DNA of 64,000 nt from Rhodospirillaceae bacterium (GCA_002713365.1 PASR01000012.1:9848-73847); one strand, 5' to 3'. Counted from the stretch's first letter, positions 13,098 through 61,398 are shown. The notes: generated by a model from the letters alone, not told the origin. Translations and numbers: made by a program.

Positions 13098-14096
13098 CTA
13101 CCAACGTATTAAACCTGAGCCCCAAGTCATACCGCCACCTAAGGCTTCAACCAAAACTAAGTCATGTTTTTCTATTTTTTTATCACATACAGCTTCCCAT
13201 ATAGCCAGAGGTATAGATGCAGCTGAAGTGTTCGCATGTTTATCAATCGTTACAATAACTCGCTCAGTGTTTATTCCAAGTTTCTTTGCAGTTCCATCAA
13301 TAATTCTTTTATTAGCTTGATGCGGAACAAACCAGTCAATATCAGCAGCCAGAAGATTATTATGAACCAGAGCCTCGGTTACCACTTCTGACATTTTAAC
13401 AACAGCATGCCGAAAGACTTCTTTTCCTTCCATTCGTATACAACCAACTGTTCCCGTTGTTGATGGCCCACCATCAACATAAAGCAAGTCATGGAGCCGT
13501 CCATCTGAATGTAGATGTGTTGATAAAATTCCCCTATCACTACCTAGACTTTCAACGGACTCATTACTTAATAAAATACTTCCTGCACCATCACCAAATA
13601 AGACACAAGTTCCTCTATCATTCCAATCCAAAATACGTGAATTAGTTTCAGCTCCAATTACAAGTGCATTGTTAACTTGACCTGATTTAATAAAATTATC
13701 AGCAGTAGCCAAAGCATAAACAAATCCAGAACAAACTGCTGCAATATCAAAGGCCATCGCGTTGTTAGCACCAACTTTCGCCTGAACAGTTGTAGCTGTA
13801 GCTGGAAATGTATGATCTGGTGTACTTGTAGCAACTATAACGAGATCAATATCCTTAGGATGCATACCTGCACTCTTTAATGAAACGTCTGCAGCGGCGG
13901 CGGCCAGATCTGAGGTTAATTCACCTGGCGCAGCAATATGGCGCTTTTCAATTCCACTTCTAGCTTTTATCCAATCGTCAGATGTTTCGAGTTGTTCTGC
14001 TAAATCCTCATTAGTGAGGATATTCTTCGGTAAATAACCTCCACACCCAACAACTACAGATCTACGTAACTTATTATTACTCACTCTGCTCACCAA
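13098..14096 (-). CDS. fabH: 3-oxoacyl-ACP synthase III
   Basis: 332 aa with the active-site Cys context ([15 protein letters not shown]) and the His/Asn region (VPHQANKRI). Confidence 0.9.
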
Positions 14097-15108
14097 TGTT
14101 TAGTTGGGCGATATGTTCAGCTATCATTTGATTTCCTCCATAGTTAATCATATCAATTGCTACGCCTATAGCTGTAGCAAAACCCAATGCATCAGTCCCC
14201 CCATGACTTTTAACACATATACCATTTAGTCCAAGAAACATTGCACCATTATATCTTCTCGGATCACTCCTGTTTCTTAGTTTATCCAGTGAATGTTTAG
14301 CAAATACATAGCCTAATTTCGCCCATAAAGAGTTACGAAAAGCTTCCCTAACAAATCCATTTATCAGTTTTGCTGTACCCTCAGCAGTCTTTAAAGCAAT
14401 ATTCCCAGTAAACCAATCAGTAACAACAACATCTACAGCTCCTGCAGGTATGTCATCACCTTCTACAAAACCTACAAATTCTCCAGAAAAATCAATACCC
14501 CGAATTATATCAGCTGCTTTTTGTAATTCTAGATTTCCTTTTGTATCCTCTGTTCCAACATTTAATAAACCAAGAGTAGGGTCTTCAATACCTAATATTG
14601 TTCTTGAATACACTTCTCCCATTACAGCGAATTGTACAAGATTTCTTGCACTACAAGATATATTAGCACCTAAATCAAGCATAACAGTCTCTCCCCTTAA
14701 TGTGGGGAAAAAAGAAGCAATAGCTGGTCTATCTATTCCTGGAAGATTTTTCCACTGTATCATAGCCATGGCCATCAAAGCTCCAGTATTACCAGCTGAA
14801 ACGGCCCCGGATGCAGTACCATTTTTTACTGATTCTAAGCTAAGCCACATAGATGTATTACGACCGCTACGTATAACCTGAGATGGCTTATCATCATCAG
14901 CCACCTGCTCTGAAGTATGATAAATCTCAACGTAATCTCTTAAACCACGTTGTTTAGATATTAATTTACTTATCTGTTGTTCATCACCATAAAGTAAAAA
15001 ATTGACATGAGGATATCTTCGGCGAGCAATGTTTGCACCTGCAACAACTATCTGCGGCGCATCATCACCGCCCATGGCATCTAAAGCTATAGTGACGGGC
15101 TCCATCAA
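14077..15108 (-). CDS. plsX: Phosphate acyltransferase PlsX
   Basis: 343 aa: [14 protein letters not shown] ... a typical PlsX N-terminus. Overlaps fabH by 20 nt. Confidence 0.9.
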
Positions 15109-29125: not shown

Positions 29126-30337
29126 ATGAACGAAGTTAACAGTTCTTCAAAAAATAATACCAAAAAAAATAACTTTATCTGGCAAGACCCGCTACTGCTT
29201 GATGATTTACTTACAGAAGATGAGAGAATAGTCAGAGATACGGCCAATTCTTATGCCCAAGAGAATCTGATGCCAAGAATTTTGGAGGCAAACCGTCAAG
29301 AAAATTTTGACCGTAATATAATGAATGAAATGGGTAAGCTTGGTTTTCTTGGATCAACTTTACCAGAAAAATACTGATGCGCAGATGTAAATAATGTTTG
29401 CTATGGGTTGTTAGCTAGAGAAATAGAAAGAGTGGATTCAGGATATAGATCCGCCCTGTCAGTTCAATCTTCTTTGGTAATGTGGCCAATTTATACTTAT
29501 GGCAATGAAGAACAGAGAATAAAATATTTACCAAAACTTTCAACAGGGGAATGGATCGGTTCATTTGGCTTAACAGAACCTAATGCAGGATCTGACCCTT
29601 CTAGCATGTTGACAAGGGCCACCAAAACAGAGGATGGATTTTTATTAAATGGTTCAAAAATGTGGATATCAAATGCACCAATAGCTGATATATTTGTTAT
29701 TTGGGCCAAAGACAATGAAAATATTATACGTGGTTTTATTCTTGAAAGAGAAATGAAAGGACTTACAACTCCAAAAATAGAAGGGAAATTCTCTTTACGG
29801 TCCTCATCAACAGGTGAAGTCGTGATGGACAATGTATTTGTTCCTTTTGAAAATAAACTGCCAAATGCACAAGGACTTAGTGGACCCTTTGGATGCTTAA
29901 ATAAGGCTAGGTATGGGATAGCTTGGGGAGCAATTGGAGCTGCCGAGTTTTGTTGGCATGCAGCCCACCAATACACATTAGACAGACATCAATTTGGAAA
30001 ACCTCTAGCCGCAACGCAACTAGTTCAAAAAAAGTTAGCCGACATACAAACAGAAATAACTTTAGCTTTACACGCAAGCTTAAGACTTGGCAGATTAATG
30101 GATGAAGACAAGTCATCGCCAGAAATGATTTCTCTACTCAAACGTAATAATGCAGGTAAGGCACTTGATATAGCAAGATTATCCAGAGATATGCACGGCG
30201 GCAACGGAATATCTGATGAATTTCATGTGATACGTCATCTTATGAACTTAGAGACAGTTAATACATATGAAGGGACGCATGATGTTCATGCCTTAATACT
30301 AGGAAGAGCACAAACTGGAATACAAGCATTTTTCTAA
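29126..30337 (+). pseudogene. gcdH: Glutaryl-CoA dehydrogenase (acyl-CoA dehydrogenase family) interrupted by a single in-frame TGA at 29375-29377
   Basis: ORFs 29126..29377 and 29408..30337 are in the same frame. The TGA falls where the conserved Gly of the ...Y-G-C-A-x-V... segment belongs (...[30 protein letters not shown]...). GGA to TGA is a single-base change. Confidence 0.8.
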
Positions 30338-30656: not shown

Positions 30657-30684
30657 AGAGTTTTATAAAACTAATATTTTAACA

Positions 30685-30762
30685 ACTGGGGTGTCGCCTT
30701 TTCTAGTCGACTGAGATCATACCCATAGAACCTGAGCTGGATAATGCCTGCGTAGGGAGTAA
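30685..30762 (+). promoter_or_regulatory. TPP (thiamine pyrophosphate) riboswitch, THI element
   Basis: ACUGGGGUGUCGCC...CUGAGA...ACCC..GAACCUGAGCUGGAUAAUGCCUGCGUAGGGAG is a near-perfect match to the THI-box consensus (GGGGUG, CUGAGA, ACCUGAUCUGGAUAAUGCCAGCGUAGGGAA). It sits directly upstream of thiO-thiS-thiG. Confidence 0.9.
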
Positions 30763-30766
30763 AATT

Positions 30767-31915
30767 ATTAATAAATTTTCAAATTCTCAACCTAATGTAT
30801 CTATAATAGGCGCAGGTGTATGCGGTCTAAGTATAGGCTGGCGGTTAGCTAGTGCTGGTTGTCAAGTTAATATATATGAGCGCGGCAAATCTGGACGGGC
30901 AGCTTCTTGGGCTGCTGCTGGTATGTTAGCAGCTGGCGTTGAATGTGAACCCGGAGAAGAAAACCTATTAAAGCTAACAACATTAAGTCAGAAACTTTGG
31001 CCTAAATTTCTTCATGACCTTAGCAAAGACTCTAAACAAAATCCTGAGTATCGCAATGAAGGAACACTTGTTGTTGCTATAAACCGTGATGACGCGACAA
31101 GATTAGAATTCACCTATAATTTTCAAAAGAACCTTGGAATAAACCTTGAATGGCTTGATGGATATGAAACTAGAAAACTTGAGCCTCATTTAAACCCATC
31201 TATCGTGGCTGGCGTATACAGTTCTAACGATCATCAAATAAATAATCGTTTACTTATGAGATCATTAGAGGAAGCCTTTGTTCATAAAGAAGGAATAATT
31301 CACGAGTACACAGAAGTAACTGACATAGAGACACATAATGAATCTGTGAAGGGTATAATAGTTGATGGCTCATTAATAGAAACTGATGTGGTGATTATTG
31401 CAGCAGGTGCCTGGTCTAATAATATAAACGGACTTACTAAGGAATGTATCCCTCCGGTCAGACCTGTTAAGGGACAAATGCTATCATTGAAAATGGAGCA
31501 AAATTCACCGCTATTAAAACATGTAATTTGGGCCCCAAATGCATATTTAGTTCCACGTAATGATGGAAGTTTATTAGTTGGAGCAACTATAGAGGAAAAT
31601 GGTTTTAATCCCGACTTAACAGCTGGTGGAATATTTTCCTTGTTAGAGGCCTCTTGGCGTGTGATACCAAATATTGAAGAGTTACCCATAAAAGAAATGT
31701 GGGCTGGATTCAGGCCAACTAGCAGAGACGATGCTCCAATACTTGGCGCAACAAAGATTAAAGGACTTGTAATGGCAACAGGTCATCACAGAAATGGGAT
31801 ACTTCTAGCACCAGTTACAGCTAACGCGGTAAGTGAATTAATTTTAAATGGTGAAACAACTAAAGAAGTAGAGCCTTTTTCAATAGAACGATTCAATAAT
31901 AACATTGAACATTAA
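30767..31915 (+). CDS. thiO: Glycine oxidase ThiO (FAD-dependent); start probably non-AUG (AUU at 30764/30767), because the ATG at 30923 would remove the FAD-binding GxGxxG motif
   Basis: In-frame extension upstream of 30923 encodes ...NVSIIGAGVCGLSIGWRLASAGCQVNIYERGKSG..., the Rossmann dinucleotide-binding motif. That frame is open back to the stop at 30704 and contains no ATG/GTG/TTG. An AGGGAG Shine-Dalgarno at 30754-30759 precedes ATT codons. Confidence 0.7.
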   Translation: MNKFSNSQPNVSIIGAGVCGLSIGWRLASAGCQVNIYERGKSGRAASWAAAGMLAAGVECEPGEENLLKLTTLSQKLWPKFLHDLSKDSKQNPEYRNEGTLVVAINRDDATRLEFTYNFQKNLGINLEWLDGYETRKLEPHLNPSIVAGVYSSNDHQINNRLLMRSLEEAFVHKEGIIHEYTEVTDIETHNESVKGIIVDGSLIETDVVIIAAGAWSNNINGLTKECIPPVRPVKGQMLSLKMEQNSPLLKHVIWAPNAYLVPRNDGSLLVGATIEENGFNPDLTAGGIFSLLEASWRVIPNIEELPIKEMWAGFRPTSRDDAPILGATKIKGLVMATGHHRNGILLAPVTANAVSELILNGETTKEVEPFSIERFNNNIEH

Positions 31916-32943: not shown

Positions 32944-33840
32944 TTACTTATTAATATTACTGATCTGTTTTATTATAGCTGAAAAATCAAGTTCTGAATT
33001 GTTTTCTAGCTGAGAGAATGTATTGTATAGTTCAGTTGCCTTCGCTCCTAGAGGGGTATTAAGTCCATTGTCCTTGGCAGCAACTTGAGAGAGATTTAAA
33101 TCTTTCAACATCATAGCAACCGTAAACCCTGCGGAGTAATCTTTATTAGCTGGAGATGTTGGCACCGGGCCTGGCACAGGACAATAATCTGTCATTGACC
33201 AACATTTACTAGTTGCAGTAGATGCAATATCCCATAATTTTTGAATATCAAGGTCAAGTTTTTCTGCCAATAAAAAACCCTCACTAACTCCAATCATTTG
33301 AATAGCTAACATTAGATTATTACATACCTTAGCAGCCTGTCCGCTGCCCGCATCACCTGCATGAAAAATATTTTTTCCCATAGATTTAAGAATTGATTCG
33401 GCTTTATCATAAGCTTCAATTTTACCTCCACACATAAACGTTAATGTTCCTGCATCAGCTCCACCTACTCCTCCTGAAACAGGCGCATCAATCATTTCTA
33501 TTCCTCTTTGAGCAGCAACTTCCATGACTTGACGAGCAGTAATAACATCTATGGTTGATGAATCTATAAGTACGGTTTTAGGTGAAACAGAATAAAGAAT
33601 TTTATTGTCTTCAAGATATACAGAACGGACATGTTCTCCTGCGGGAAGCATAGTGATTACGAATTCCGCATCTATAATAGTTTCTTCGGCAGAATTTGCT
33701 TTAGTTGCTCCTTTGTTTACAGCTCTATCAATAGCCTCAGGGATGATATCATATGCTTTAACTTTATGACCGTCTTGAATAAGATTGGAAACCATGGGGC
33801 CACCCATATTCACAAGTCCAATAAAGCCTATTTGTGACAT
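32944..33840 (-). CDS. mmsB: 3-hydroxyisobutyrate dehydrogenase
   Basis: MSQIGFIGLVNMGGPMVSNL... NAD-binding GxGxxG, 298 aa. Confidence 0.85.
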   Translation of the reverse strand: MSQIGFIGLVNMGGPMVSNLIQDGHKVKAYDIIPEAIDRAVNKGATKANSAEETIIDAEFVITMLPAGEHVRSVYLEDNKILYSVSPKTVLIDSSTIDVITARQVMEVAAQRGIEMIDAPVSGGVGGADAGTLTFMCGGKIEAYDKAESILKSMGKNIFHAGDAGSGQAAKVCNNLMLAIQMIGVSEGFLLAEKLDLDIQKLWDIASTATSKCWSMTDYCPVPGPVPTSPANKDYSAGFTVAMMLKDLNLSQVAAKDNGLNTPLGAKATELYNTFSQLENNSELDFSAIIKQISNINK

Positions 33841-47799: not shown

Positions 47800-48702
47800 T
47801 TAAGCATCAAAACGTAGACCCCATTCTCTATAACGGCCTGGTTCGTTTATCCAGTTTGCACTTACTTTAACATGTAAGAATAGATGCACCTTTGTCTCAA
47901 ACAAATCAGAGAGTTCTCTCTGAGATTCCATACGTATCCTTTTGATTGTTTTACCCCCACTGCCAAGAACGATACCTTTTTGTGATTCCCTTTGGACATA
48001 AATTACCTGTTCGATTCTAATGCTATTATCTTTTAGTTCTTTCCAATTATCATTATCAACAGCTACTGAATAAGGTAATTCCTGATGCAAATAAAGATAA
48101 ACCTTTTCCCTTGTAATCTCCGACGCTAAAAGCCTTTGAGGTAAATCAGATAGTTGATCATCTGGAAACAACCATGGCCCAGCTGGCATACGTGTTGCTA
48201 TAGTTGTTTGAAGTTCTGAGACGCCCTCACCATTTAAGGCAGAAACCATAAATATTTCATTAATTTTTGTTTCATATTTAAGTTCATCAATTAGTCTCAA
48301 TAGTAATTCACGTTTCAAGTTATCTATTTTATTTAACACTATATATATTTGGCATTCTCTTTTAGAGAGTTTATCTATTATCGATTTTATATTTGCTCCA
48401 ATTCCACGAATTGAATCAATAACAAGTAAGACTATATCCGCTTCTTCAGCCCCTACCCAGGCAGCATCAACCATAGCTCGTTCAAGTCTTCTTTGGGGAG
48501 CGAATATTCCTGGAGTATCAACGTAAATTATTTGAGTTAAATCTAAAATAGAAATAGCTCTGATTCTACTTCGTGTCGTTTGAACCTTGTGTGTAACAAT
48601 AGAGACTTTACTGCCAATAAATTTATTTACTAGAGTAGATTTACCAGCATTGGTAGGACCAATAACAGCAACGATTCCACATCTAGTGGGTTTTATTGTC
48701 AT
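47800..48702 (-). CDS. era: GTPase Era
   Basis: CGIVAVIGPTNAGKSTL (G1), DTPG (G3), NKID (G4), C-terminal KH domain. I started it at the internal Met (MTIKP). Confidence 0.9.
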   Translation of the reverse strand: MTIKPTRCGIVAVIGPTNAGKSTLVNKFIGSKVSIVTHKVQTTRSRIRAISILDLTQIIYVDTPGIFAPQRRLERAMVDAAWVGAEEADIVLLVIDSIRGIGANIKSIIDKLSKRECQIYIVLNKIDNLKRELLLRLIDELKYETKINEIFMVSALNGEGVSELQTTIATRMPAGPWLFPDDQLSDLPQRLLASEITREKVYLYLHQELPYSVAVDNDNWKELKDNSIRIEQVIYVQRESQKGIVLGSGGKTIKRIRMESQRELSDLFETKVHLFLHVKVSANWINEPGRYREWGLRFDA

Positions 48703-49360
48703 GTGAAACCCCCAACTCAAATAATAAATTGTGAGCAGCTTTCTGTTCAGCTGATTGTTTATTATTACCTTTAGCTGTAGAATTTCCTAGCCGAGGAACG
48801 TTCACCATGACAGTAAATATGGGTTCATGATCAGGCCCTTCTCTAGTCACTTCTGTATAAATAGGTATCCCAGCTCCCTTTGATTGACTCAATTCTTGTA
48901 GTGCTGTCTTCGAGTCTTGGGGTGGAATACCTAGCGTTTTAACCAAAGGCTCCCAGAACTTATAAATAAACTTTTTTACTACAGGAAATCCACCATCTAA
49001 ATACAATGCAGCAATAATTGCCTCCATAGTATCAGCCATAATACTATTATTGACTTTTACCCCTTTTAAAATAATAAATTTATTAAGTTCGATTCTATAT
49101 CCAATATTAGTCAAAGTATCACCCATTACTAATTGAGAAAATCGACGACCAATATCACCCTCATTATCTAGCGGATATTCATCCAAAAGCATTTTAGCTA
49201 TAACCAATCCCAGGACACGATCACCAAGAAATTCTAATCTTTCATTATTATAATTCAGATCTGAACTGGAATGAGTTAAGGCTTGTTCTAATAATAATTT
49301 ATTAGTAAACTCATGCTCCAAATGTATTAGCAGCACTTCCAAACCTTCATTAAAAGACAT
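48683..49360 (-). CDS. rnc: Ribonuclease III
   Basis: ERLEFLGDRVLGL catalytic signature and a C-terminal dsRBD. Confidence 0.95.
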   Translation of the reverse strand: MSFNEGLEVLLIHLEHEFTNKLLLEQALTHSSSDLNYNNERLEFLGDRVLGLVIAKMLLDEYPLDNEGDIGRRFSQLVMGDTLTNIGYRIELNKFIILKGVKVNNSIMADTMEAIIAALYLDGGFPVVKKFIYKFWEPLVKTLGIPPQDSKTALQELSQSKGAGIPIYTEVTREGPDHEPIFTVMVNVPRLGNSTAKGNNKQSAEQKAAHNLLFELGVSHDNKTH

Positions 49361-50110
49361 TAGTTAATGCTTTGAGTTATTCGTGTAAATCGCGTTGCAC
49401 TTGGCCACATCCATGGCTTAAACCAGCCAGCTGTTCCATCTGTTGAAAAAAATATAAATTCAGCGCGACCAATAAGATTTTGTTGTGGTATGTAACCCCA
49501 ACTGCGACTGTCATTACTATTGTCTCTATTATCCCCCAAAGCAAAATAATGTCCATCAGGAACAATGTATTCTGGAGTATTATCGTAAGGCCCTGTATTA
49601 CCTAAAGATTCTCTAACTTTATAACTTTTACCATTAGGAAGCGTTTCAATGTACTCAGAAGATCTATGATTTTTTCCTGCACGAATTTCTAACTCAGGGT
49701 TTTTGATTTTAATTTTCTTCACAGGCAATCCATTTATATGAAGTAAACCATTTACCACCATGATTCTATCTCCTGGGATTCCAACAATTCGTTTAATAAA
49801 ATCTTCTTTATTTTGTGGAGGATGTCTAAATACAGCTACATCCCCACGTACGGGTTCATTATTTAATATTCTACCTGAAAAAAAAATTCAATCCAAACGG
49901 TATTGAAAATCGACTGTACCCATATGAAAATTTAGATACAAATAGATAATCACCAACCAATAATGTAGGTATCATAGACCCAGATGGAATATTAAAGGGT
50001 TGGTAGGCGACTGATCTTACAAAAAATGCAATTATAAGAGCATAGAGAATTACTCGTATGTTTTCACCAATGCCTCCACGACTTTTATTTTTATCTAATG
50101 GTTTTGCCAT
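49360..50110 (-). pseudogene. lepB: Signal peptidase I (LepB) with a +1 frameshift inside a 9-nt homopolymer (A9 on + strand, 49878-49886)
   Basis: N-terminal ORF (49871..50110: ...PSGSMIPTLLVGDYLFV...) and C-terminal ORF (49360..49761: ...GDNRDNSNDSRSWGY...) are both LepB. The stretch between them is open in the downstream frame (SGRILNNEPVRGDVAVFRHPPQNKEDFIKRIVGIPGDRIMV). Removing one A from the run restores a single 250-aa ORF. Confidence 0.8.
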
Positions 50111-55770: not shown

Positions 55771-55912
55771 GTTATATTACTCAAAATTAAAAAACTAATA
55801 TAAATTCAACTATTTAATACTATTAATTATATAAAATACTTCTTAATAAAGATAATATCGAATTAAAAAAATCTGCTAATATAAATAGATAACAATTTGT
55901 TAGTGAAAGCAC

Positions 55913-59699: not shown

Positions 59700-60091
59700 A
59701 TAGGATGCTCTAAAGCCGACAAAGCGGGACTTGAAGAAAACATCCATCCATTAAATACTAAACTATTTCCTTGTCCTATAACATTATCAGTTATTTCGAC
59801 AAAAACTGCAGATTCCGGATTTTCCGTTGGAGGATTCTTATAGCAAGTTCTAACTTTTATAGTCAGGGTACCAAAGTATATTTTTTGTTTTATTGTTGCC
59901 TGAAGCCTTTCAGTCCTAGCGGTAACTTTATCTAACCCATGAAGAATTGCTATGGGCTTAAATTTCTCAGATTGTAAATTCGTTGACTGGGCAAAGCACA
60001 TATTCAACATAATAATATTTAATAATATATATATAGAGAAAACATATCTCAAAAAATTAATATTATTAGTTATATTAATAAAAGAAAACAC
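59636..60091 (-). CDS. DUF2155 domain-containing secreted protein
   Basis: 151 aa with a signal peptide. Has the alphaproteobacterial DUF2155 character and the usual neighbour (NDUFA12-like gene). Its 3' end overlaps aat by 64 nt. Confidence 0.55.
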   Translation of the reverse strand: MFSFINITNNINFLRYVFSIYILLNIIMLNMCFAQSTNLQSEKFKPIAILHGLDKVTARTERLQATIKQKIYFGTLTIKVRTCYKNPPTENPESAVFVEITDNVIGQGNSLVFNGWMFSSSPALSALEHPIYDVWVVDCIKLSSSSNVSSD

Positions 60092-60537
60092 TATTTATCA
60101 TTTGTCATAAATATGATTTTGGAAACACTATCTTCAAGTGATTCATAATCACGTGTTTTAAAGACCTCATCACCATCTTTCAGTATTTTATCTGATATGC
60201 CTGGGGTAAGCCTCAAATAAGAACCTCCTAATAAACCTTCACTATCTATAAACACAGATGTATCAGTTGGAACTTTAATATCCGCATCAACACTAAATGT
60301 TATTAAGGCTTCAAAGCTTTCTTTATCAAGAGAACGGTCAATAACAACGCCTACTTTGACTCCACTGATTTTAACTTCATTTCCAATATTTAAACTTCCA
60401 ACTTTATAAAAACGCGCCTTAAGATTAATAACATTATCATTACTGCTATCTATATATTGGAGAGCAAATATTAGAAATATGAGCGCAACTAAAAGAACTA
60501 TTGCACCAATTAAGGTCTCTGCCATTCCACGATTCAT
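60091..60537 (-). CDS. mlaD: MlaD-like MCE domain protein (outer membrane lipid asymmetry/ABC transporter periplasmic component)
   Basis: 148 aa: N-terminal TM helix plus a single MCE domain. Confidence 0.7.
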   Translation of the reverse strand: MNRGMAETLIGAIVLLVALIFLIFALQYIDSSNDNVINLKARFYKVGSLNIGNEVKISGVKVGVVIDRSLDKESFEALITFSVDADIKVPTDTSVFIDSEGLLGGSYLRLTPGISDKILKDGDEVFKTRDYESLEDSVSKIIFMTNDK

Positions 60538-61010
60538 GGCATCCTCTTATTATATTCAACATCATCATGTCTTTTTGATTTACTACCGATTATTTTAAGT
60601 AAATCAGCTAAAATAAGTGAATCTTCTGTGTATATAATTTCTTGGCCAGGTTTAAGAGTATTACCACTTCCAATATCTAATTGAATATATTTTTTTCCAA
60701 ATAAACCAGGAGTTGTAATTGAAGCTACTGATTCAGAATCTAAAATTATATTGTTTTCTACAGTGATGGATATTACAGCTCGTAAATCTTTATCTAAATA
60801 CAAGTCTTTTACGATTCCAACTGGAATACCTGCAATTTTAACTTCACTTCCAACTGATATCCCATCCACTTGGTTAAACCGAGCGGTATAATAAAAACTT
60901 TTTGATTTAGATTCTGTAACTTTGAAAACAGATATTATTAAAAATATAAAACATACAGAGATTACAAATCCCGTCAATAATTCGTATTGTTTATGCCGTA
61001 AATAATACAT
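60534..61010 (-). CDS. MCE domain protein, second tandem MlaD-like paralog
   Basis: TM helix plus MCE domain. Start set at the internal Met (MYYLRH...) to avoid a 53-nt overlap with the upstream gene. The ORF track extends to 61097. Confidence 0.6.
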   Translation of the reverse strand: MYYLRHKQYELLTGFVISVCFIFLIISVFKVTESKSKSFYYTARFNQVDGISVGSEVKIAGIPVGIVKDLYLDKDLRAVISITVENNIILDSESVASITTPGLFGKKYIQLDIGSGNTLKPGQEIIYTEDSLILADLLKIIGSKSKRHDDVEYNKRMP

Positions 61011-61044
61011 TTGACTGTTTGCTTTTATTAATAACCAAATATAT

Positions 61045-61398
61045 CTATTTGGGTGTCCACGATTCATAGTCTCCTGTATTACGAGGTCTATGACCACCTC
61101 GCAACGTACTACCAGGCGGCACGTATGCAGCTCGAGTACCGCTCAAGTTGGGAACATGTTCTTTTTGCCACGAATGTCTATTTTTATCCGTCAGAGGTGT
61201 ATCAGTTATATGGTGGAGCCAAGCGTGCCATTCTGGTGGAACCTTACTTGGCTCAGAACTCCCCTTATAAACAACCCACCTTCTTTCTCTATTATATCCT
61301 GATCTACCTTTACTTCGATAATAACGATTACCAAAGTTATCTTCTCCAACTTTAATGCCTGTAATCCAGGTCTTTATCAACGTACCAAGCGTTGCCAT
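61045..61398 (-). CDS. NADH:ubiquinone oxidoreductase subunit NDUFA12-like (17.2 kDa) family protein
   Basis: MATLGTLIKTWITGIKVGEDNFGNRYYRSK ... RWVVY ... PPEWHAWLH. Confidence 0.8.
   Translation of the reverse strand: MATLGTLIKTWITGIKVGEDNFGNRYYRSKGRSGYNRERRWVVYKGSSEPSKVPPEWHAWLHHITDTPLTDKNRHSWQKEHVPNLSGTRAAYVPPGSTLRGGHRPRNTGDYESWTPK

Follow-up and report, generated by a model that had tools for sequence, protein, structure and literature searches.

In E. coli LepB (MEROPS S26A), a type I signal peptidase of 324 aa, the catalytic dyad is formed by Ser90 in IPSGSM and Lys145 in KRAVGLPGD. Among single-base frameshifts at homopolymers, close parallels in living cells are those of the endosymbionts Buchnera and Blochmannia, rescued by transcriptional slippage: an essential housekeeping gene with no other decay is shifted by 1 nt, an A/T tract of at least nine bases marks the very spot, and different populations, and even species, share such frameshifts (PMC3017870). 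Sites in Citrobacter rodentium tssM1 (A11), Shigella mxiE and Thermus dnaX (A9) likewise have homopolymers of 9-11 bases just upstream of a premature stop, beyond which the gene goes on in another frame; slippage there adds nucleotides and is needed for function, and Yersinia has the tssM site too (PMC4256274, PMC5009743). A similar picture is produced by homopolymer-length consensus errors in draft or long-read assemblies, in which a one-base difference in the longest A/T run of a region splits an essential gene and close relatives all carry the in-frame length; gene-fragmenting homopolymer errors are a recognised problem, detected by reference comparison (PMC12007338).

The lepB gene examined here, which lies in a stretch of 64 kb (the window), shares features with all of these cases: a nine-base tract exactly at a 1-nt frameshift, shortly before a premature stop, in an otherwise undecayed essential gene whose close relatives are in frame. 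Unlike the frameshifts of Buchnera and Blochmannia, that of lepB is a singleton against 16 near-identical contigs, its tract is young, and its genome is of a free-living marine type with 36% G+C and one such tract in 64 kb. Unlike the tssM1, mxiE and dnaX sites, it could be mended only by the loss of one base or the gain of two, and no relative has the site. The window also differs from assemblies with homopolymer errors, in that there is one event in about 48 kb and the other suspicious differences are G:C>T:A substitutions. Taken together, the comparisons reported below indicate that the extra T is probably no property of the organism but a consensus error, a T8 run miscounted in sequencing or assembly.

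The sequence-only reading had described lepB as split over two minus-strand ORFs exactly at the A9/T9 run, with eight residues giving an uninterrupted LepB, and both points were borne out (Table 1). At the frame break the sense strand reads GGA TTG AAT TTT TTT TTC AGG TAG, with an in-frame UAG two codons past the T9 run, while the C-terminal frame begins slightly ahead of the run and continues unbroken to the TAA stop at 49360. Deletion of one T yields a 249-aa protein reading ...NFFSGRILNNEPVRGDVAVFRHPPQNKEDFIKRIVGIPGDRIMVVNG..., which scores 161.5 bits on the signal peptidase I model TIGR02227 (cut-off 47 bits; model positions 2-161 of 162) and can be aligned with three structures of E. coli SPase I (1T7D, 1KN9 and 1B12) at E of about 1e-36. 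Taken separately, the C part reaches 114 bits and the N fragment stays under the cut-off with 43.1 bits. The repaired protein resembles E. coli LepB in having a membrane anchor and the IPSGSM, KRIVGIPGD and GDNRDNSxDSR boxes; it is shorter, only one anchor is predicted and domain II is smaller, 249 aa being a normal size among alphaproteobacterial homologues (247-260 aa).

Table 1. Coordinates (window numbering) of the features of the lepB locus and of three substitutions private to the window in other genes.
Feature	Position	Strand	Remarks
lepB, type I signal peptidase, S26	49360..50110	-	751 nt, one base in excess; minus one T gives a 249-aa ORF
N-terminal ORF, 79 aa	49871..50110	-	ends ...GLNFFFR*; membrane anchor and Ser box IPSGSM
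Catalytic Ser45 codon	49976-49978	-	within IPSGSM; aligned to E. coli IPSGSMMPTL
T9 homopolymer at the frame break	49878..49886	-	A9 on plus strand
C-terminal reading frame	49360..49878	-	SGRILNN...QSIN*; Lys box FIKRIVGIPGD and GDNRDNSNDSR box
Catalytic Lys106 codon	49792-49794	-	within IKRIVGIPGD; aligned to 1T7D
133-aa downstream ORF (gene-caller view)	49360..49761	-	start is Met117, downstream of the catalytic Lys
rnc (RNase III)	48683..49360	-	Pfam Ribonuclease_3 and dsrm
PlsX Gly232>Trp in VVVTDGFTGN motif	14415 (plsX 14077-15108)	-	private C>A
Acyl-CoA dehydrogenase Gly84 GGA>TGA	29375 (gene 29126-30337)	+	private G>T
3-hydroxyisobutyrate-dehydrogenase-like Gly10>Val in GLGNMG Rossmann motif	33812 (gene 32944-33840)	-	private C>A

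Neither fragment would be workable alone, because the break falls between Ser45 and Lys106. In the window as written these two residues are in different frames, and they are united on one polypeptide solely in the T8 allele, which is borne by all relatives. The 133-aa downstream ORF lacks both the membrane anchor and the catalytic Lys and is no functional peptidase. The T9 allele as written would thus be null unless recoded, and transcripts with either U8 (wild-type protein) or U11 (one additional Phe) would restore the frame.

The acpS-lepB-rnc-era-recO context that had been ascribed to the gene agrees with the Pfam annotation, which gives the order ACPS, Peptidase_S26 (PF10502), Ribonuclease_3, Era-type GTPase with KH_2, and RecO both for the window and for every syntenic contig; lepB has acpS on its upstream side and is followed by rnc, era and recO. 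One base is shared by the lepB stop and the rnc ATG (TAATG, 49358-49362), and a premature lepB stop, if real, could lower expression of rnc and era through lost translational coupling, with a presumed polar effect.

The allele carried by the surrounding population was surveyed by looking up exact copies of the AcpS, RNase III and SpoT proteins of the window and reading lepB on each contig. All 15 distinct contigs that reach the site, obtained from independent samples and with different assemblers (among them Tara Oceans, LUOE20-1, Logan and JGI) and 99.6-99.9% identical to the window, read AAT TTT TTT TCA (T8) and have a single 249-aa LepB call. Among the 16 contigs that make up the T8 clade (the 15 intact ones and L092) neither the T9 allele nor any tract-length polymorphism was found, substitutions being the only variants seen at the level of contigs. 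In addition, a public protein (P0001) is 100% identical to the repaired LepB over 249 aa; over the 3,143 nt that its contig (L081) shares with the window, at 99.68% identity, the two differ by nine substitutions and by one gap, located at the tract, where L081 has T8.

The remaining contig of this clade, L092 (1,056 nt, 99.6% identical), has T8 followed by G at 525-535, which changes Ser78 from TCA to TGA at the equivalent of window position 49877. Real or in error, this is the codon hit by the extra T, disrupted here independently on a low-quality type of contig; the disruption is a substitution, and a length change was therefore rejected. A reassignment of TGA, which could have accounted for the stop in L092, was rejected as well, as TGA ends 9 of the 66 ORFs in the window and is thus an ordinary stop with no stop recoding at play. 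L092 was one of three short contigs retrieved with the exact 133-aa C ORF, the others being L093, which has T8 and begins near the tract, and L094, which begins downstream of it, so that neither of these two is a split gene. The exact 79-aa N fragment has no record on any public contig in the index. A variable-gap pattern scan of JGI metagenomes gave no match, a null that carries no information since a known JGI contig fits the pattern locally; a fixed-flank scan of JGI metagenomes gave one contig, L114, in which the run is interrupted (TAT). Among species-representative genomes the nearest matches are only 65% identical.

Contigs of three independent assemblies break within 50 nt upstream of the tract (window about 49914-49934), namely at the starts of L093 and L112 and at the end of L103; here codon 76 (TTT, CTT or TAT) and a G/T polymorphism at 49898 probably create strain bubbles. 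Sporadic gene breaks were observed in other genes of single contigs, including a spoT split into 234 and 362 aa by a 1-nt deletion at window 53699 (L095), a PhyH gene of 193 vs 261 aa (L099) and a 1-nt insertion in acpS at window 50577 (L121). These gene-breaking singletons, mostly outside homopolymers, are a baseline for lesions or errors in public assemblies.

Regarding the run itself, the T9 is the sole A/T homopolymer of at least nine bases in the 64-kb window, where nine A/T runs of eight are found; base composition (the window has 36.4% G+C) leads to an expectation of 2.9 runs of at least nine vs the one observed. A run of nine is therefore unremarkable by composition, and the non-random part is its placement exactly at the frame break. 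Codon 76 of lepB is TTT only within the clade at least 99.6% identical to the window. The run is interrupted in L114 (99.0% identical; AAT TAT TTT TCA), L112 and L082 (98% and 93%; AAT CTT TTT TCA), L083 (84%; AAT TTA TTT TCA) and L084-L091 (80%; GAT ATT TTT TCT), and the lepB frame is unbroken in every relative with an interrupted run. The relatives thus show neither a conserved slippery site nor a frameshift maintained over time, and the long T run is, by this distribution, evolutionarily young. The sequence at the break had been called fully conserved, which is overstated, as the residues there vary across relatives (NLFSGRILSNE, DIFSGRIFSDE, NYFS).

Both halves of lepB have a dN/dS of about 0.1 vs the 80-84% relatives and of 0.07-0.26 vs the 93% relative, values that show purifying selection acting on both; the other window-private difference within lepB, a single one, is synonymous. 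The run is followed by AGG, which at 10.8% of Arg codons is no rare codon here, and no Shine-Dalgarno-like or GGAGG-like element was seen upstream of the run when the sequence was inspected by eye. The features of a prfB-like +1 frameshift are missing, the site being absent in relatives and the UAG lying two codons after the run and not at the shift codon.

The near-identical contigs allowed the record to be compared over 12.3-60.6 kb of the window, with 1-12.3 kb and 60.6-64 kb outside the comparison; the ribosomal protein S9 encoded in the 1-12 kb part had no exact match. At the 47,478 positions with coverage by at least three relatives, the window has a single private indel, the extra T. 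The alignment with TARA scaffold_36 is free of gaps from 12311 to 48738, L115 differs from the window over 14.2 kb by 15 substitutions and the extra T, and at other runs of 7-8 bases no length difference from relatives was found. Furthermore, lepB is the sole frame-broken gene among about 66. A generally indel-prone assembly is thereby ruled out, and a one-off event remains.

Ten adjacent same-strand ORF pairs, scanned with Pfam as candidates for further split genes, all proved to be separate full-length genes. Two adjacent MlaD-domain genes (148 and 187 aa; 60091-61097, minus strand), preceded by an NDUFA12-like gene and followed by a DUF2155 gene, were likewise rejected as a split gene, each MlaD domain being complete, and are a tandem pair. 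Short intergenic indels at 55789-55794, 15348, 28678 and 38899 vary among subsets of the contigs, the window having a common allele at each; real indel variation in the population is limited to non-coding DNA. Most of a 585-nt stretch free of ORFs is accounted for by a TPP riboswitch (RF00059, 62.9 bits; 30677-30775, plus strand) upstream of a DAO/ThiO-like gene, which is followed by thiS and thiG.

In total 17 differences are private to the window: 7 synonymous, 5 nonsynonymous, 1 nonsense, 1 frameshift and 3 intergenic. Polymorphisms shared by at least two contigs comprise 88 synonymous vs 30 nonsynonymous or nonsense changes. G:C>T:A changes make up 5 of the 16 private substitutions, and the unpolarised C/A or G/T class is represented by 6/16 private vs 20/133 shared substitutions (Fisher p=0.037); private and shared differences were also compared for nonsynonymous vs synonymous changes (p=0.19) and for null alleles (p=0.11), tests that are weak owing to the small counts. 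Three of the private changes affect a Gly codon in plsX, in an acyl-CoA dehydrogenase gene and in a 3-hydroxyisobutyrate-dehydrogenase-like gene (Table 1), and every relative has Gly at all three sites. The PlsX Gly is also invariant in 1U7N and 1VI1 and that of the 3-hydroxyisobutyrate-dehydrogenase-like protein in 5Y8G and 3Q3C, from distant phyla. The acyl-CoA dehydrogenase has 403 aa in six of six relatives, whereas a remnant ORF of 309 aa (29408-30337) is left in the window; a second homopolymer frameshift, near an A8 run, was considered for this gene and rejected, the lesion being a nonsense substitution that is not at a homopolymer.

Together with lepB, these three G:C>T:A changes amount to four function-destroying private differences in about 48 kb. 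Extrapolated genome-wide, four such lesions are not credible for a viable free-living bacterium under purifying selection. As three private changes besides the extra T would destroy conserved genes, the private differences of the record include unselected noise, and the simplest reading is that part of them, the extra T included, is artefact or unselected damage. It is mainly the severity of the changes that carries this argument, the formal tests being weak from small counts.

The sequence-only reading had left two alternatives, a homopolymer length error in the assembly and a genuine indel rescued by slippage, of which the former gains and the latter loses ground. A sequence error is favoured because 15/15 near-identical contigs have T8 and an intact gene, to which are added the identity of P0001 and the status of the extra T as the only private indel; for slippage nothing but the run length spoke. 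The T9 thus likely has a technical origin, in sequencing or assembly, and did not arise in a cell. Against an error it can be held that homopolymers are otherwise accurate in the record, with no other run of 7-8 bases off, that about 7 private synonymous SNPs mark the window as a distinct strain, for which a private real mutation is conceivable, that T8 runs are natural hot spots of replication slippage, and that the L092 stop at the same codon could hint at tolerated null alleles. It is nevertheless unlikely that replication slippage caused a real, recent and private T8 to T9 expansion in this strain or single cell, with some full-length LepB rescued by RNA polymerase slippage (a minority of U8/U11 transcripts) or by a ribosomal +1 shift on U UUU UUU, and very unlikely that the T9 is real and a free-living streamlined marine alphaproteobacterium survives with it as polymerase slippage on U9 yields enough U8/U11 transcripts. 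Nine is indeed the length at which bacterial RNA polymerase reportedly slips on A/T runs (PMC5009743), it matches the tracts of at least nine bases counted in Blochmannia (PMC3017870), and full-length products or transcripts of 20-30% are found in the published cases of Blochmannia, Buchnera and Citrobacter tssM1 (PMC3017870, PMC4256274); U8 and U11 would each restore the frame, the strain is distinct, and the window has no second broken frame that would mark an indel-prone assembly. However, the frameshift is absent from relatives (0/16 contigs) and the run is young. Slippage on A/T runs mostly adds single bases, deletions in homopolymers being rare (PMC5574713), and that study has no instance of a transcription error restoring a reading frame, whereas here the addition of one base is useless and only a 1-nt deletion or a 2-nt insertion helps. 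The parallel that had been drawn with AT-rich reduced genomes does not fit either, this genome being poor in long tracts, with one of at least nine bases in 64 kb, vs 114-153 in coding regions of the whole genome in Blochmannia (PMC3017870). The ordinary AGG codon and the lack of a Shine-Dalgarno-like element upstream also count against a ribosomal shift, and the lesions in plsX and the two dehydrogenase genes are beyond repair by slippage and suggest that private differences are noise. If rescue were true, polymerase infidelity of the endosymbiont style would extend to an abundant planktonic lineage with large population size, and a real T9 would be a rare natural test of transcriptional slippage buffering an essential gene outside endosymbionts.

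A real null allele without rescue, in a defective or dying cell, a minority variant, a single-cell genome, a mutator lineage or a damaged template, is decidedly improbable. G:C>T:A is the class of change expected from unrepaired 8-oxoguanine, in vivo or in damaged DNA, and four severe private lesions in 48 kb, three of them of this class, would fit such an origin, as would another null at the same codon in L092 and the sporadic breaks in spoT, PhyH and acpS in L095, L099 and L121. Against this, neither an isolate nor a population consensus of high coverage would plausibly have a null allele, the density of lesions implies very many damaging changes genome-wide, and at the level of the consensus such an allele looks the same as a library or consensus artefact. 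There is very little likelihood that lepB is a genuine pseudogene whose role has passed to a second signal peptidase I in another part of the genome. In some bacteria there are indeed several such enzymes of type I; however, the search for a second intact lepB that had been suggested, carried out by tblastn on the 64-kb window, found no second S26 homologue there, lepB has no other decay and a dN/dS of about 0.1 in both halves, and the gene is intact at the same position in all close relatives. An evolved programmed recoding or phase-variation site setting LepB dosage has next to no probability. It can draw only on the run length and the in-frame UAG two codons beyond the run, and stands against an interrupted run with a continuous frame in the relatives at 99.0%, 98%, 93%, 84% and 80% identity and against a constant tract length among the 16 T8-clade contigs; by these comparative data programmed recoding and phase variation are effectively refuted.

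The organism is an uncultured marine alphaproteobacterium with 36% G+C, present in Tara Oceans and other open-ocean metagenome assemblies, and under the preferred reading of a one-base sequence error its real lepB would be the T8 allele, an ordinary, intact gene of single-copy appearance within the usual acpS-lepB-rnc-era-recO cluster, encoding a LepB of 249 aa with a Ser45/Lys106 dyad. The caution urged before any pseudogene call was right. The record has several private function-destroying differences, so that other broken genes or odd residues in it need checking against population contigs; the lepB finding is itself ordinary, and its practical value is as a warning on the private variants of the record. 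Regarding annotation, lepB is to be listed neither as a pseudogene nor as an example of recoding, since the population has an intact allele.
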